Notes: generated by a model not told the origin, from the letters alone. 4,709 nucleotides of DNA from a virus (IMGVR_UViG_2695420847_000008); one strand, 5' to 3'; counted from the stretch's first letter, positions 139 through 3,964 are shown. Translations and numbers: made by a program.

Positions 139-498
139 ATGCTCATAGAGTTTGTTTTGCCTTACCCGCCGACGGTGAACACCTACTGGCGACGTCGTGG
201 CAGCACATATTTTGTATCAAAAGCCGGTGAGCGTTATCGCCGGGCTGTGGCGCTTATTGTTCGCCAGCAGCGGCTGAAATTAAGCCTGTCCGGAAGGCTG
301 GCGATAAAGGTGATTGCAGAGCCACCGGATAAGCGTCGTCGCGACCTGGACAACATTCTGAAAGCACCGCTGGATGCGCTGACGCATGCGGGAGTGCTCA
401 TTGATGACGAGCAGTTTGATGAAATCAATATTGTACGTGGTCAGCCAGTATCTGGTGGACGGCTGGGTGTGAAGATTTACAAAATTGAGAGTGAGTGA
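139..498 (+). CDS. rusA: RusA-family Holliday junction resolvase (crossover junction endodeoxyribonuclease)
   Basis: 119-aa ORF with ATG at 139 and an AAGAGG Shine-Dalgarno at 127-132 (6-nt spacing). The protein carries the RRRDLDN acidic motif and a later LIDDEQ acidic patch, matching my recollection of E. coli RusA (about 120 aa, same motif positions). Stop TGA at 496-498. Confidence 0.88.
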   Translation: MLIEFVLPYPPTVNTYWRRRGSTYFVSKAGERYRRAVALIVRQQRLKLSLSGRLAIKVIAEPPDKRRRDLDNILKAPLDALTHAGVLIDDEQFDEINIVRGQPVSGGRLGVKIYKIESE

Positions 499-1058
499 GC
501 GTAAATATGATATATCCGGAAATTACAGGCAAAAGCGGCGAACATTTACGCCTGAACACGCTGGAAGCAGTCTGGATCCAGGGGAAATTACGGATGTGGG
601 GGCGGTGGTCGTATATCGGTGGGGGTAAATCCGGAAATATGTTTAACCGGTTACTGGTTTCGAAAAAGCTGACGAAAACAGCAGTTAATGAGGTTTTACG
701 CAGAATGAAGAAATCCGGGCTGGAAAAAACGGAACTTGAGGCATTTTTTCGGGATATGACAAGAGGAAAGCAGAAGAGCTGGTTGTCACATTGTACAGAC
801 ACAGAGGCGTTGATTATTGATCGCGTTATCAGTGAGGTGCTTGGGGAATATCCCGGGCTAATCAATGTTCTCCGGCAAAGGTACGAAGGACGGGGAATGA
901 GCAAACTGAAAATGGCCGAAAGGTTAAATGCAGATCATCCTGATTGGTCGTTGGTTACGTGCAGACGCCGAATTGATCAATGGTTGGGGGTATCTGAATT
1001 TATGTTATATGCCCCCATGCGCATGGCTTTTGTTACAGAGAAAAATGTTGCAAACTGA
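495..1058 (+). CDS. Putative late-gene antiterminator Q (Phage_antitermQ-like)
   Basis: 187-aa ORF from GTG at 495, overlapping the rusA stop in a GTGA arrangement; an alternative ATG start lies at 507. The gene sits immediately upstream of a terminator-containing non-coding stretch, the canonical Q position. The residue pattern (W..W...GNMFNRLL; TDTEALIIDRVISEVLGEYPGLINVLRQRY; RRRIDQWLGVSEFML) resembles QuuD-type Q proteins as I remember them. No search was run. Confidence 0.55.
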   Translation: MSVNMIYPEITGKSGEHLRLNTLEAVWIQGKLRMWGRWSYIGGGKSGNMFNRLLVSKKLTKTAVNEVLRRMKKSGLEKTELEAFFRDMTRGKQKSWLSHCTDTEALIIDRVISEVLGEYPGLINVLRQRYEGRGMSKLKMAERLNADHPDWSLVTCRRRIDQWLGVSEFMLYAPMRMAFVTEKNVAN

Positions 1059-1137: not shown

Positions 1138-1159
1138 GCCACCGGAAGGTGGTTTTTTT
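1138..1159 (+). terminator. Rho-independent terminator (tR'-like) downstream of the Q-like gene
   Basis: GC-rich stem CCACC (1139-1143) / GGTGG (1148-1152) with a GGAA tetraloop, followed by 7 T (1153-1159). A weaker stem (GCG-AAA-CGC) plus T7 run lies just upstream at about 1107-1126. Confidence 0.55.
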
Positions 1160-1282: not shown

Positions 1283-1480
1283 ATGCTAAAACAGCAGGAT
1301 ATGACAGAAACCGCCAGAGTGGTGTTTAATGAATTAAGCGTTACCGAACCGGCGACAGTCGGGGAGATAGCGCAGAATACTTACCTTTCACGCGAACGCT
1401 GCCAGTTAATACTGACTCAGCTGGTTATGGCGGGTCTGGCAGACTATCAGTTCGGTTGTTACAGACGCCTTCCGCAGTGA
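1283..1480 (+). CDS. Small (65 aa) hypothetical protein with a predicted winged-helix/HTH DNA-binding fold (PapI/FaeA- or MarR-like pattern)
   Basis: ATG at 1283 preceded by AGGG at 1271-1274 (8-nt spacing); stop TGA at 1478-1480. The listed ORF start at 1160 (GTG) abuts the terminator T-run and has no RBS, so the shorter start is preferred. Sequence TVGEIAQNTYLSRERCQLILTQLVMAGLADY has the helix-turn-helix plus Gly-containing wing pattern of small wHTH regulators. Homology is not verified. Confidence 0.45.
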   Translation: MLKQQDMTETARVVFNELSVTEPATVGEIAQNTYLSRERCQLILTQLVMAGLADYQFGCYRRLPQ

Positions 1481-1494
1481 AGGCTTTTTTATTT
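1467..1494 (+). terminator. Rho-independent terminator at the end of the small ORF
   Basis: Stem GCCTTC (1467-1472) / GAAGGC (1479-1484) with a 6-nt loop containing the TGA stop, followed by TTTTTTATTT. An identical copy lies at 2179-2206 inside the duplicated segment. Confidence 0.55.
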
Positions 1495-1507
1495 GTGGTA
1501 AATGGGC

Positions 1508-1538
1508 GGCTGGTGGGTGTTAGGGGCACCCACCAGCC
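1508..1538 (+). promoter_or_regulatory. Perfect 12-bp inverted repeat (GGCTGGTGGGTG-N7-CACCCACCAGCC) in the methyltransferase leader
   Basis: Read directly: 1508-1519 is the exact reverse complement of 1527-1538, with a 7-nt spacer TTAGGGG. A second hairpin (CTGCTTT-GCGCA-AAAGCAG) lies at 1580-1598. Both are repeated 712 bp downstream (2220-2250 and 2292-2310). Confidence 0.4.
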
Positions 1539-1630
1539 ATCTGCTCATGCGTTGGGTTCACAAGCAAACCTCAGGCCCACTGCTTTGCGCAAAAGCAGAA
1601 TGAGCCTATCAGAGACAGGCTTAATGATCC

Positions 1631-2350
1631 ATGCTTAATACTGTAAAAATATCCAGTTGTAAGTTAATCAACGCTGATTGCCTGGAATTTATCCAGACCT
1701 TACCGGAAAACTCTGTCGATCTGATAGTCACAGACCCGCCATACTTTAAAGTGAAGCCCGAGGGCTGGGATAACCAGTGGAAGGGCGACGATGATTACCT
1801 GAAGTGGCTGGACCAGTGTCTGGCGCAGTTCTGGCGGGTGCTGAAACCTGCCGGAAGTCTTTACCTGTTCTGTGGCCATCGCCTGGCATCTGATATCGAA
1901 ATCATGATGCGTGAACGCTTCAGTGTGCTGAACCATATTATCTGGGCGAAGCCGTCCGGACGCTGGAACGGATGCAACAAGGAAAGCCTGCGGGCGTATT
2001 TCCCCGCCACAGAGCGCATTCTGTTCGCGGAACATTATCAGGGGCCGTATCGTCCGAAAGATGCCGGGTATGCGGCGAAGGGCAGTGCACTGAAACAGCA
2101 TGTGATGGCCCCGCTGATTTCTTACTTTCGTGATGCGCGAGGCGGGTCTGGCAGACTATCAGTTCGGTTGTTACAGACGCCTTCCGCAGTGAAGGCTTTT
2201 TTATTTGTGGTAAATGGGCGGCTGGTGGGTGTTAGGGGCACCCACCAGCCATCTGCTCATGCGTTGGGTTCACAAGCAAACCTCAGGCCCACTGCTTTGC
2301 GCAAAAGCAGAATGAGCCTATCAGAGACAGGCTTAATGATCCATGCTTAA
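1631..2350 (+). pseudogene. Truncated N-terminal fragment of a DNA methyltransferase (about 170 aa authentic sequence plus about 69 aa out-of-frame extension), created by the tandem duplication
   Basis: The 239-aa ORF matches the intact gene through ...PLISYFRDAR, then reads the duplicated small-ORF tail and leader out of frame (GGSGRLSVRLLQTPSAVKAF...), stopping at TAA 2348-2350. It retains the DPPY catalytic motif but lacks the C-terminal FxGxG AdoMet-binding motif. Confidence 0.7.
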
Positions 2351-2852
2351 TACTGTAAAAATATCCAGTTGTGAGTTAATCAACGCCGACTGCCTGGAAT
2401 TTATCCGGTCGTTACCCGAAAATTCTGTTGACCTGATAGTCACGGACCCGCCGTACTTTAAAGTGAAGCCTGAGGGCTGGGATAACCAGTGGAAGGGCGA
2501 CGATGATTACCTGAAGTGGCTGGACCAGTGTCTGGCGCAGTTCTGGCGGGTGCTGAAACCTGCCGGAAGTCTTTACCTGTTCTGTGGTCATCGCCTGGCA
2601 TCTGATATCGAAATCATGATGCGTGAACGCTTCAGTGTGCTGAACCATATTATCTGGGCGAAGCCGTCCGGACGCTGGAACGGATGCAACAAGGAAAGCC
2701 TGCGGGCGTATTTCCCCGCCACAGAGCGCATTCTGTTCGCGGAACATTATCAGGGGCCGTATCGTCCGAAAGATGCCGGGTATGCGGCGAAGGGCAGTGC
2801 ACTGAAACAGCATGTGATGGCCCCGCTGATTTCTTACTTTCGTGATGCGCGT
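2141..2852 (+). repeat. Tandem direct duplication, copy 2 (712 bp), continuing into the intact methyltransferase gene
   Basis: See copy 1. After 2851 the sequence continues with TGCTGCTCTGGGG (intact gene), whereas copy 1 is followed by the duplicated GGCGGGTCTGG segment. Confidence 0.85.
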
Positions 2853-3401
2853 GCTGCTCTGGGGATAACGGCAAAACAGATTGCAGATGCCACAGGAAAG
2901 AAAAACATGGTGTCGCACTGGTTCAGTGCCAGTCAGTGGCAGCTACCGAACGAAAGCGATTATCTGAAATTACAGTCGCTGTTTGCCCGGGTGGCAGAAG
3001 AGAAACATCAGCGGGGTGAACTGGAAAAGCCACATCACCAACTGGTCAGCACATACAGTGAGCTGAACCGGCAGTATACGGAACTGCTGAGTGAATATAA
3101 AAATTTGCGGCGGTATTTCGGTGTGACGGTGCAGGTGCCGTACACCGATGTGTGGACGTACAAACCGGTGCAGTACTATCCAGGGAAACATCCGTGCGAA
3201 AAACCGGCAGAAATGTTGCAGCAGATAATCAGCGCAAGCAGTCGTCCGGGAGACCTGGTTGCAGATTTCTTCATGGGGTCGGGGGCGACAGTGAAAGCAG
3301 CGATGGCGCTGGGACGTCGTGCAACTGGCGTTGAACTGGAGACTGAACGTTTTGAGCAGACGGTGCGGGAAGTACAGGATTTAATCATTCGTAACGGATG
3401 A
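2343..3401 (+). CDS. DNA methyltransferase, N6-adenine/N4-cytosine family (beta-class permuted; PF01555-like), probably an orphan phage N6-adenine MTase
   Basis: 352-aa ORF. The N-terminal region has DLIVTDPPYF (motif IV, DPPY) and RVLKPAGSLYLF. The C-terminal region has KHPCEKPAEMLQQII...GDLVADFFMGSGATVKAAMALGRRATGVE (motif I FxGxG, AdoMet binding). This order of motifs is typical of beta-class amino-MTases. A middle segment (AALGITAKQIADATGKKNMVSHW) looks HTH-like. No adjacent restriction endonuclease gene is visible. Confidence 0.88.
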   Translation: MLNTVKISSCELINADCLEFIRSLPENSVDLIVTDPPYFKVKPEGWDNQWKGDDDYLKWLDQCLAQFWRVLKPAGSLYLFCGHRLASDIEIMMRERFSVLNHIIWAKPSGRWNGCNKESLRAYFPATERILFAEHYQGPYRPKDAGYAAKGSALKQHVMAPLISYFRDARAALGITAKQIADATGKKNMVSHWFSASQWQLPNESDYLKLQSLFARVAEEKHQRGELEKPHHQLVSTYSELNRQYTELLSEYKNLRRYFGVTVQVPYTDVWTYKPVQYYPGKHPCEKPAEMLQQIISASSRPGDLVADFFMGSGATVKAAMALGRRATGVELETERFEQTVREVQDLIIRNG

Positions 3402-3441: not shown

Positions 3442-3517
3442 GGCCCTTTAGCTCAGTGGTGAGAGCGAGCGACTCATAATCGCCAGGTCGCTGGTTCAAA
3501 TCCAGCAAGGGCCACCA
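3442..3517 (+). tRNA. tRNA with CAU anticodon, most likely tRNA-Ile2 (lysidine type, ileX/ileZ-like), alternatively tRNA-Met
   Basis: Manual cloverleaf: acceptor GGCCCTT/AAGGGCC, D-arm GCTC-AGTGGTGA-GAGC, anticodon loop CTCATAA (anticodon CAT), T-arm GCTGG-TTCAAAT-CCAGC, discriminator A and an encoded CCA. The sequence closely resembles E. coli ileX as I recall it. Confidence 0.8.
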
Positions 3518-3524
3518 TCACATA

Positions 3525-3601
3525 CCGCCATTAGCTCATCAGGAAAGAGCGCCAGCTTTCGAAGCTGGTTGCGCGGAGTTCGGGTCCCCGAAGGCGGTCC
3601 A
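3525..3601 (+). tRNA. tRNA-Arg (anticodon UCG), with non-canonical features; possibly degenerate
   Basis: Manual fold: D-arm GCTC-ATCAGGAAA-GAGC; anticodon arm CCAGC-TTTCGAA-GCTGG (anticodon TCG); T-loop TTCGGGT; 3' TCCA. Irregularities: A-A mismatch in the acceptor stem (position 6:67), A-C mismatch in the T-stem, and G rather than A at position 58. Confidence 0.55.
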
Positions 3602-3614
3602 TTATCTGTATCCT

Positions 3615-3691
3615 GCGTTGTTAGCTCAGCCGGACAGAGCAATTGCCTTCTAAGCAATCGGTCACTGGTTCGAATCCAGTACAACGCGCCA
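3615..3691 (+). tRNA. tRNA-Arg (anticodon UCU, reads AGA/AGG)
   Basis: Manual cloverleaf: acceptor GCGTTGT/ACAACGC, D-arm GCTC-AGCCGGACA-GAGC, anticodon arm ATTGC-CTTCTAA-GCAAT (anticodon TCT), T-arm ACTGG-TTCGAAT-CCAGT, discriminator G and an encoded CCA. Architecture resembles argU. Confidence 0.85.
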
Positions 3692-3731: not shown

Positions 3732-3964
3732 AAATATCTCACAATTCAGGCGGTTGACTGTTGTCTGGTTTGCGGGGAGTTTGTTAAAAGAAACTGGCAT
3801 GGTGAATCCCCCTGTGCGGAGGGGCGATCAGCAACCAGGTATATGGGATAATCGCGGATTCAGGTGCTGATACTGAATTCACCGGGAGGCACCCGGCACC
3901 ATGCTTTGCCACAAAAGTGTTGTTTCTGTTTTTCTCAAACTATCATCGTTATCCCTTTATTTCC

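Follow-up and report, generated by a model that had tools for sequence, protein, structure and literature searches.

A predicted winged-helix protein gene and a conserved structured spacer element accompany M.EcoGII-type methyltransferase genes in enterobacterial prophages

In phage Mu, com, a gene for a ~62-amino acid protein, lies just 5' of mom, a toxic DNA-modification gene that is silent in lysogens; the start of mom is masked by mRNA structure and its control is post-transcriptional. In restriction-modification systems, the controller (C) proteins are HTH dimers of the Xre type; they bind C-boxes before their own gene and accompany a restriction endonuclease. PapI acts with Lrp and Dam on the GATC sites of fimbrial operons in growing cells. 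M.EcoGII is the textbook case of a non-specific adenine methyltransferase and a much-used reagent for chromatin footprinting and RNA labeling; to our knowledge, its native regulation has been described only as 'silent in lysogens'. The enzyme methylates adenine whatever the context, be it in dsDNA, ssDNA, or RNA, and has full and non-specific activity alone both in vitro and in vivo; the lysogen does not express it, and constitutive expression slows growth (Murray et al. 2018, PMC5778455). The enzyme was studied alone in that paper, which does not discuss its upstream gene or its leader and uses the word 'upstream' zero times (PMC5778455). M.EcoGII and Mom have been mentioned jointly as phage DNA modifiers that are silent and toxic (PMC12707154). 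In the Stx phage PA8, the protein PNB-2 forms a 1:1 complex with the methyltransferase M.EcoPA8orf6770P and determines which substrates that enzyme prefers (Gong, Chakraborty and Koudelka 2023, PMC10810198).

Here, we analyzed a 4,709-nucleotide stretch of viral DNA (IMGVR_UViG_2695420847_000008; hereafter the window) in which an original prediction, made from the sequence alone, had placed a 65-amino acid protein with an HTH-plus-wing pattern between a tR'-like terminator and an orphan DNA methyltransferase gene. The window spans the region from Q to the late genes of a lambdoid prophage that resembles Stx phages but has no stx (Table 1), and the nearest complete E. coli genomes are 99.5–99.7% identical to it with the gene order unchanged. 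The Q-like gene also matches Phage_antitermQ (E=8e-7) and PHROG 753 (anti-termination protein Q-like) and is a RefSeq CDS in the nearest genome. Both terminators that had been predicted around the small gene are present. The tR'-like stem, CCACC(GGAA)GGTGG at 1139–1152 followed by T7 at 1153–1159, was read from the sequence, the terminator scan having given a minus-strand reading only. The small gene's own terminator (1467–1484, GCCTTC-CGCAGT-GAAGGC plus TTTTTTATTT) holds the stop codon within its stem, and most Enterobacteriaceae loci have a hairpin that contains or adjoins the stop codon, which is missing in Proteus and Providencia as a hairpin.

Table 1. Features of the window, with the segments and hairpins of the structured element.
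Feature	Coordinates	Strand	Basis or remark
RusA	139-498		
Q-like late antiterminator, DUF1133 family	507..1058	+	Pfam DUF1133 E=4.6e-104
tR'-like intrinsic terminator, 5' of small gene	1139..1159	+	sequence reading
65-aa stand-alone (predicted) winged-helix protein gene	1283..1480	+	
Intrinsic terminator overlapping small-gene stop codon	1467..1494	+	terminator scan
Conserved structured element	1496..1630	+	candidate methyltransferase leader or antisense-RNA template
Element segment a	1502-1507		
Element hairpin P1	1508-1519/1527-1538		
Element segment b	1540-1549		
Element segment d	1556-1568		
Element segment e	1575-1579		
Element hairpin P3	1580-1586/1592-1598		
Element segment f	1619-1629		
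Truncated methyltransferase copy, duplication product	1631..2350	+	
Second copy of 712-bp tandem duplication	2141..2852	+	
Intact beta-class N6-adenine DNA methyltransferase, M.EcoGII/M.EcoGI orthologue	2343..3401	+	Pfam N6_N4_Mtase E=4e-43
Three tRNA genes (Ile, Arg, Arg), 3' of methyltransferase	3442..3688	+	Rfam tRNA matches, RefSeq
STnc100-family RNA	3768-3940		
DUF1737/SASA esterase gene	4078 onward		

The methyltransferase beside the small gene (METHYLTRANSFERASE) is of the known M.EcoGII type and not an anonymous orphan. The intact protein is identical to M.EcoGII at 335 of 350 residues (96%), a count in which a few mismatches may stem from misread letters, as the reference sequence came from machine-read text in the supplement of PMC11551740. 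Its motifs (DPPY at residues 34–37 and FMGSG at 310–314) stand in the beta-class order of DPPY, TRD, FxGxG, and among the PADLOC models only generic type II methyltransferases matched it. It is the 96% identity that suggests that this enzyme, too, methylates adenine independently of sequence. Phage 1720a-02 has been named as a carrier of a very similar methyltransferase gene (PMC5778455), and we found the small ORF and the spacer 5' of that gene as well, at 95.8% DNA identity. No restriction gene is present in the window or adjoins the pair in the nearest genome or in phage phiP27; in both of the latter, the tRNA genes come next after the methyltransferase.

The methyltransferase had been described as lying immediately downstream of the small gene. 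A methyltransferase gene does start 150 nt on, but it is a truncated copy, and the intact one lies further 3' (Table 1). The truncation results from a tandem direct duplication of 712 bp, in which 1429–2140 is repeated as 2141–2852 with 14 mismatches clustered at 1661–1759. The truncated copy keeps residues 1–170 with the DPPY motif, lacks FxGxG, and ends in an out-of-frame tail. The second copy of the duplicated stretch includes the small gene's final 17 codons, the terminator, the structured element described below (model match 2200–2362), and the 5' part of the methyltransferase gene, such that both methyltransferase copies have the RNA element 5' of them. The duplication is missing from the closest complete genomes, and among 5,426 complete E. 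coli genomes there was none with a contiguous junction, so that we take it to be either a rare recombinant of two prophage alleles or an assembly chimera. One viral contig (L111) has a comparable rearrangement.

The small ORF is a real gene and not a chance ORF. It runs from ATG to TGA, and the identical 198-nt CDS is annotated in RefSeq, both in the nearest genome (WP_000917767.1) and in phiP27 (NP_543075.1, 'TrmB family transcriptional regulator'). A set of 5.8 billion proteins yielded 334 homologues, nearly all from Enterobacterales prophages, under the names 'hypothetical', 'TrmB family transcriptional regulator', or 'DprA-like winged helix'. A profile search recovered only 85 clusters among 1.84 billion representatives, so the family is narrow. 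Across 23 distinct alleles of 63 codons, substitutions at codon positions 3, 1, and 2 numbered 6555, 1749, and 1723, and this third-position excess indicates purifying selection on the protein. A longer, 106-amino acid ORF from a GTG at 1160 was ruled out: it would cross the tR'-like terminator, RefSeq and most sources give 63–65 amino acids, and Met1 and the MLKQQDMT tail are kept family-wide while upstream extensions are not.

The HTH-plus-wing pattern of this protein was borne out by structure prediction. AlphaFold2, run with a 28-sequence alignment, gave a model with a mean pLDDT of 93.0 and a pTM of 0.80, in which helices at residues 9–16, 26–33, and 37–49 are followed by strands at 53–56 and 59–62 (H-H-H-E-E); the predicted fold is a winged helix of three helices and a beta-hairpin wing. 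The best PDB and viral Foldseek matches were the winged helices of OhrR, SarZ, IclR, MarR, TrmB, and ArsR, with TM scores on the query of 0.7–0.86 (0.77–0.86 for the top MarR, OhrR, SarZ, and IclR matches) and every E-value at least 1e-3. The Foldseek neighbors include the N-terminal winged-helix domains of the SAM-dependent O-methyltransferases RedM, DsyB, PigF, and SibL, and a PDB profile search with the family alignment returned DsyB as its sole match (E=0.05). In the profile searches that had been proposed for the protein, all Pfam matches fell below their gathering cut-offs (TrmB, PF01978, 18.0 bits against 25.6; MarR_2, 14.7 against 27; HTH_24, 12.8 against 21.9), NCBIfam gave no significant match, and PADLOC defense-system models gave a negligible match only. 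The protein belongs with PHROG 331 (E=1.4e-37), a family of unknown function.

The original prediction read this protein as a DNA-binding regulator of the PapI/FaeA or controller type, one that would bind a 12-bp inverted repeat between the two genes and time or switch transcription of the methyltransferase. Several features are as this reading would have them: the modeled fold, whose closest structures include the MarR, OhrR, SarZ, and IclR repressors; the TrmB family name given by NCBI; and the palindrome, which is perfect in the window. Neither of the two regulator types fits, however. The protein shares small size and a predicted winged-helix fold with PapI and FaeA, but Pfam FaeA (PF04703) did not match it at E up to 1, and its neighbor in a phage late operon is a methyltransferase of the non-specific, lysogen-silent M.EcoGII type. 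Because that type is non-specific and not Dam-like, an epigenetic switch based on GATC would have no substrate. As with C proteins, a small HTH protein gene lies 5' of a modification gene and a timing role was proposed for it; unlike C proteins, the 65-amino acid protein has no match to the Xre-type HTH families (Pfam HTH_3 and HTH_31), and an endonuclease gene is absent from the window and from beside the pair in related loci. Regulators of the TrmB/MarR type resemble it in fold, with a TM score of 0.8 to OhrR and SarZ, and in weak profile similarity, but they are dimers of at least 130 amino acids with dimerization helices and ligand sites, whereas this is a bare 65-amino acid domain. Sub-threshold matches in Pfam, NCBIfam, and PDB sequence searches count against the DNA-binding reading as well, as does the behavior of the palindrome described below.

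Conservation within the family is concentrated in the N-terminal tail, MLKQQDMT, and in helix 3 (RCQLILTQLVMAGL), while helices 1 and 2 and the wing vary freely. The invariant or near-invariant positions are M1, M7, T8, A11, C40, L44, T45, Q46, A50, and G51; M1, T8, T45, and Q46 are strictly invariant, and none of the invariant residues in the family alignment is basic. Its members are acidic to neutral, with a median net charge of –1 and a pI of 5.6. C40 is nearly invariant and C59 occurs in a subset, but a CxxC pair is absent. Judged from the alignment, this pattern would fit a protein interface better than a nucleic-acid interface.

The pairing of the two genes was examined in two scans. 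The first was anchored on the small protein, with one genome per species, and gave 34 loci from Escherichia, Salmonella, Klebsiella, Kluyvera, Citrobacter, Enterobacter, Buttiauxella, Scandinavium, Phytobacter, Mangrovibacter, Mixta, Proteus, Providencia, and Plesiomonas. A methyltransferase homologue (58–96% identity) lies 3' of the small ORF in 32 of these 34 species loci, or 32 of the 33 that could be tested; one exception (L023) runs into a contig end with the spacer element present, and the other (L020) has lost the methyltransferase. The distance from the small ORF to the methyltransferase start is 134–153 nt, with only a disrupted copy (L030) outside this range, and it is kept while the small protein falls to 41% identity and the distances or types of the RusA and Q genes vary. 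In L030, the small gene is disrupted and the methyltransferase is intact. The second scan, of viral sequences, was anchored on the spacer element and used neither gene as a probe; 111 loci had a methyltransferase and enough flanking sequence to be counted. Both genes are present in 103 of these, with 11–31 nt between the small gene and the element. The pairing, whose conservation across prophages had been proposed as a check, is thus non-random and has been kept in more than 10 enterobacterial genera.

Loci with a methyltransferase and no small ORF had been named in advance as evidence against a joint module, and such loci make up ~7% of the viral set (8 of 111). All eight keep the RNA element and an intact-looking methyltransferase gene. 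In place of the small ORF, they carry a Q gene (PF03589 or PF06323) or a gene for a 212–221-amino acid membrane-type protein, and the breakpoint falls just 5' of the terminator hairpin in four different upstream arrangements. The module can therefore do without the small protein. The converse, a small gene without a methyltransferase, occurs only in deletion derivatives: L020, PhiR5_1, and an Stx2k phage in which the methyltransferase is N-truncated. The association is thus strong but one-sided: the small gene depends on the module, which for its part has no strict need of the small gene.

These breakpoints also bear on whether the small gene has anything to do with its neighbor. It could be a hitch-hiker, a late 'moron' in the same mosaic block with its target elsewhere, such as host or phage transcription or some other protein. 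The block of terminator, RNA element, and methyltransferase recombines independently of the small gene, different small-protein subtypes stand before nearly identical RNA elements (L019 compared with L033), and M.EcoGII needs no partner (PMC5778455), all as expected of a passenger. Yet across the 34 species loci and more than 100 viral loci, the small gene is found off the module only in deletion remnants, its spacing to the element is fixed, and the pairing holds at 41–55% protein identity across Enterobacterales families. We consider a passenger role unlikely, though it stands second among the four explanations considered here.

The ~150 nt between the two genes are the most conserved part of the locus, with their length and much of their sequence kept from E. 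coli to Plesiomonas. They contain a structured element of ~135 nt that is present in one copy per locus (covariance model R1), and the 12-bp inverted repeat is the P1 helix of this element. The covariance model used only the uncontested hairpins P1 and P3; its 73 matches, 71 of them distinct, were re-aligned. Changes on both sides of a pair were found at 8 of the 12 pairs of P1 and 4 of the 6 pairs of P3. Overall, the pairing exceeded that of both 500 column shuffles and slid partners: 88–94% of cells were paired compared with 29–45% when partners were slid, and 81–108 cells had double changes compared with 6–27. Folding z-scores for the element were –4.0 to –4.8. Rfam has no family for the element in the window or in six related loci: the plus strand had no match, and the best match in the window was P26 on the minus strand at 24.2 bits, below the threshold of 36. 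A literature search for the element sequence returned one chance match, in an unrelated astrovirus paper.

Coding does not account for this conservation. A 33-amino acid ORF in the spacer (1502–1603, MGGWWVL...) was rejected as its cause: close relatives differ by 1-nt indels, some of them in the P1 loop, that disrupt the frame, and the substitutions compensate base pairs rather than being synonymous. A conserved extended –10 lookalike, TGTGAAAAT, was ruled out as well, since a second group of phages described below has CGTGAAAAT instead and since a start at TGTGAAAAT would remove segment a, which is paired in both folds of the element.

As a DNA operator, 1508–1538, the only palindrome, was rejected as the main reading on its RNA-type covariation, its G·U pairs, and its bulge. 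In relatives P1 is mostly imperfect, with frequent G·U pairs and, in 27 of 71 rows, a bulged G together with a U·G pair, and it belongs to a larger structure that covaries. In Proteus, its sequence is wholly different while helix 3 of the small protein is unchanged, and P1 and the rest of the element are equally conserved where the small gene is absent. A consensus scan of 1000–2400 found no sigma-70-like promoter between the genes on either strand. On these four grounds, namely the RNA-helix behavior, the Proteus change, the conservation without the protein, and the lack of a detectable promoter, the operator model is weak, and we rank a DNA-binding regulator last, as a quite improbable explanation. 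The original proposal is thus supported in part, as to the winged-helix fold, the conserved pairing, and the accessory-like asymmetry; the two regulator types and the operator are not supported.

The remaining segments of the element can form two sets of helices that are mutually exclusive, with compensatory changes in each. In set I, helix a:e, which is 100% paired and has a single double change, in Mixta, forms together with b:d, in which pair 58-84 is C-G in 22 rows, U-A in 22, A-U in 14, and U-G in 5. In set II, a:b is 99% paired with changes from G·U to G-C, and d:f is 96.5% paired in group A, the window's group, with double changes at three pairs. The best evidence that d alternates between its two partners comes, in our view, from the Proteus/Providencia clade, where segment d has changed from CACAAGC to CACGGAC and the change is compensated in both b and f. 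On the plus strand, the minimum-energy folds of the window, Salmonella, and Proteus members (z-scores –4.0 to –4.7) are all of set II, with a long hairpin of a:b and P1 and a long-range helix over the nucleotides just 5' of the methyltransferase AUG. In the window, the AUG itself lies inside the long-range helix, whose partner, segment d, is ~70 nt upstream. A stem that would inhibit translation is thus present over the methyltransferase start, provided that the plus strand is the functional RNA.

Given this leader, the small protein might act as Com does in Mu: it would bind the leader RNA and shift it from a:b and d:f to a three-way junction of a:e, P1, and b:d, turning on translation of the methyltransferase. 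The layout recalls com-mom, as a small protein gene lies directly 5', on the same strand, of a toxic, lysogen-silent DNA modifier with a masked start. The minimum-energy folds of three divergent members pair the AUG-proximal nucleotides with segment d, no Shine-Dalgarno sequence precedes the AUG, and both helix sets are compensated, the Proteus-clade changes in d being matched in b and f. M.EcoGII and Mom have also been paired in print (PMC12707154). The protein itself is less accommodating: Com is a basic zinc-finger protein, whereas the family here is acidic to neutral and of predicted winged-helix fold, with no invariant Arg or Lys and no Com-like zinc-finger motif. Further, com overlaps mom, unlike the two genes here with their ~150 nt and often a terminator between them, and Mom is not a SAM methyltransferase. 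The element is conserved just as well in the eight loci without the small gene and in phages that have neither gene, and its transcribed strand is unsettled. We place a Com-like activator third, as rather improbable.

As to strand, counts of G·U against A·C favor the plus strand for a:b, P1, d:f, and P4, but b:d favors the minus strand (97% compared with 75% paired), and minus-strand folds of the element are as stable as plus-strand folds. A related form of the element, group B, occurs in 34 viral contigs and retains segments a, b, d, and e as well as P1. There it is flanked by a PF03589 Q gene on one side and a holin-lysozyme cassette on the other, and both the small ORF and the methyltransferase are missing. 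The hairpin beside segment a has its U-run on the minus strand in group B and on the plus strand in the window's group, and the group B consensus folds better on the minus strand (–93 compared with –79 kcal/mol), as expected of a cis-antisense sRNA opposite a late leader. With signals on both strands and this second context, we regard this element as a structured, conserved RNA device placed ahead of toxic late genes, which may act as an mRNA leader switch, as an antisense RNA, or both. Group B also suggests that this is a more general, uncatalogued device at the entry to lambdoid late operons.

For the small protein, the explanation that we rank first, at a probability of about 0.35 and by analogy, is an accessory partner of the methyltransferase; the passenger, the Com-like activator, and the DNA-binding regulator follow in that order. 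It is placed first because of the conservation pattern, the dependence asymmetry, and the precedent of PNB-2. Under this explanation, the small protein would be an optional accessory to a module whose core is the structured RNA element and the M.EcoGII-type methyltransferase. The module lies behind a Q-dependent terminator and, in the window, behind a second terminator too, so that it would be made only after prophage induction; the most stable plus-strand fold of the leader also buries the methyltransferase start codon. The small protein would contact the methyltransferase and, without a catalytic part of its own, modulate or direct it; such protein–protein contact would be more likely than binding to the inverted repeat as an operator in DNA. 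The analysis establishes that the small gene is real, its modeled fold, the conserved synteny, which methyltransferase it adjoins, and the structured element; that the two genes are expressed together late, that their products are physical partners, and which way the effect runs are what we infer.

Several observations are consistent with a partner. Synteny persists at 41% identity of the small protein while the upstream genes differ; the enzyme needs control, as M.EcoGII is silent in lysogens and harmful if constitutive (PMC5778455); and the structural neighbors include winged-helix domains of SAM-dependent methyltransferases. Against it stand the activity of M.EcoGII alone, which makes a partner unnecessary for catalysis, the eight loci without the small gene, and the disrupted copy in L030. 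Natural fusions of the small protein with the methyltransferase are absent from the 85 representative clusters, and adjacency may reflect inheritance as a block.

The PNB-2 precedent matches in layout. Its gene, too, is predicted to encode a small winged-helix protein, lies directly 5' of an adenine methyltransferase gene of a Stx-type phage, and is co-transcribed with that gene (PMC10810198). PNB-2, however, has 143 amino acids, and BLASTP aligns it to the 65-amino acid protein over 25 residues at E=0.14. M.EcoPA8orf6770P is an MT-A70 enzyme with DPPW, unlike the beta-class N6_N4_Mtase with DPPY found here, and the PNB-2 pair lies in the early-left region on the other strand, where a structured leader is unreported. 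Because homology of PNB-2 and its methyltransferase to the present pair was not detected, the precedent serves as an analogy only. The small protein thus resembles both Com and PNB-2 in layout but belongs with neither.

A wider proposal is more tentative than the partner reading itself. The trio may form a three-part late-gene safety module, in which the small protein would be a dedicated trans-acting effector or a specificity or inhibitory subunit, and the ~135-nt two-state RNA would belong to an uncatalogued phage regulatory class (leader switch, cis-antisense sRNA, or both) that gates the toxic first late genes, the methyltransferase here and the holin in the second phage group. If so, native 'non-specific' M.EcoGII would differ from the purified reagent.

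The M.EcoGII family is already known, the small-protein family is uncharacterized, and the RNA element is the more novel part; in the literature examined, we found no earlier account of a conserved trio in which a small winged-helix gene and a structured element go with an M.EcoGII-type gene. M.EcoGII-type genes are almost always accompanied by these two conserved parts, which leads to testable hypotheses on how a toxic enzyme is kept off until lysis and on its non-specificity in vivo. In phiP27 and many Stx2 phages, the block of small ORF, methyltransferase, and tRNA genes lies directly 5' of stx2. With the module directly 5' of the tRNA-stx region in phiP27 and several Stx2a, Stx2d, and Stx2k phages, any control of read-through or translation at the module would act on the Shiga-toxin transcript in those phages.

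The small ORF and the methyltransferase are separated by a structured element whose conservation spans Escherichia to Plesiomonas and in which the base-pair changes are compensatory. Two mutually exclusive sets of helices can form within this element, and one of them is predicted to bury the methyltransferase start codon, an AUG that is not preceded by a Shine-Dalgarno sequence. Searching Rfam with the element returned no match. The locations of the element and of the other features described here are collected in the table.

Features of the window and of related loci
Feature	Location	Remarks
Structured element, ~135 nt	window 1496-1630; second copy 2208-2342	between small ORF and methyltransferase
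Terminator hairpin at small ORF stop codon	window 1467-1484	
Tandem duplication, 712 bp	window 1429-2140 and 2141-2852	14 mismatches, mostly at 1661-1759
Doubled small ORF and element	viral contig L111 (reverse complement), about 5000-9784	copies ~3 kb apart
HTH-like stretch in methyltransferase	window 2843-2930	residues 167-195; Pfam HTH_3, E=0.03
Broken small ORF, Mangrovibacter yixingensis	L030:6001-6355	
Degenerate module with deletion	L058:2132-2285	
Degenerate module with diverged element	L020:6165-6309	
Group B element	loci L049, L059, L069, L102, L160-L189	between PF03589 Q antiterminator gene and holin-lysozyme cassette
Cytosine methyltransferase and endonuclease pair	L001:1-1632 (nearest genome)	~1.4-3 kb upstream of window start
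STnc100 RNA	window 3768-3940	strong Rfam match, 108 bits vs gathering score 47

Among loci L006-L037, most of those from Enterobacteriaceae have the stop codon of the small ORF inside or beside the terminator hairpin; formation of the hairpin could therefore be disturbed by a ribosome terminating there. Proteus and Providencia loci have no such hairpin at the end of the small ORF, which there lies ~10 nt 5' of the element. Some modules are broken or degenerate. Mangrovibacter yixingensis retains the element and a full-length methyltransferase despite a small ORF broken after 22 codons. At a second locus, a deletion has fused the element to the C-terminal part of the methyltransferase, and at a third, which is without a methyltransferase, the element has diverged beyond its P3 segment.

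Related elements, designated group B, were found in 34 viral contigs and share the core segments a, P1, b, d and e with the element of the window; neither the small ORF nor the methyltransferase is present at these loci. In group B the U-run of the flanking hairpin is found on the minus strand, which is also the strand that folds better; these features suggest a cis-antisense sRNA.

As a result of the 712-bp tandem duplication in the window, the first copy of the methyltransferase is truncated at residue 170, and the 3' end of the small ORF, the terminator and the RNA element occur twice. The closest genomes do not have this duplication, and across 5,426 E. coli genomes no contiguous copy of its junction was seen. 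The duplication represents either a rare recombinant or a chimera introduced by assembly. In viral contig L111, the first copy of the small ORF and element is followed by just 53 methyltransferase codons, after which RusA sequence appears for a second time; this is another rearrangement, or chimera, of the same region.

Within the methyltransferase, a weak Xre-type HTH-like stretch is positioned between the DPPY and FxGxG motifs, the region to which the authors of the M.EcoGII study assigned the target-recognition domain (PMC5778455). The prophage in the nearest genome carries, upstream of its DUF968-RusA-Q genes, coding sequences for a DNA cytosine methyltransferase and for an NgoMIV-family restriction endonuclease; this restriction-modification system is a separate one, to which the small ORF is not adjacent. 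The STnc100 RNA is flanked by a tRNA cluster on one side and a DUF1737/SASA (nanS-p-like) gene on the other.
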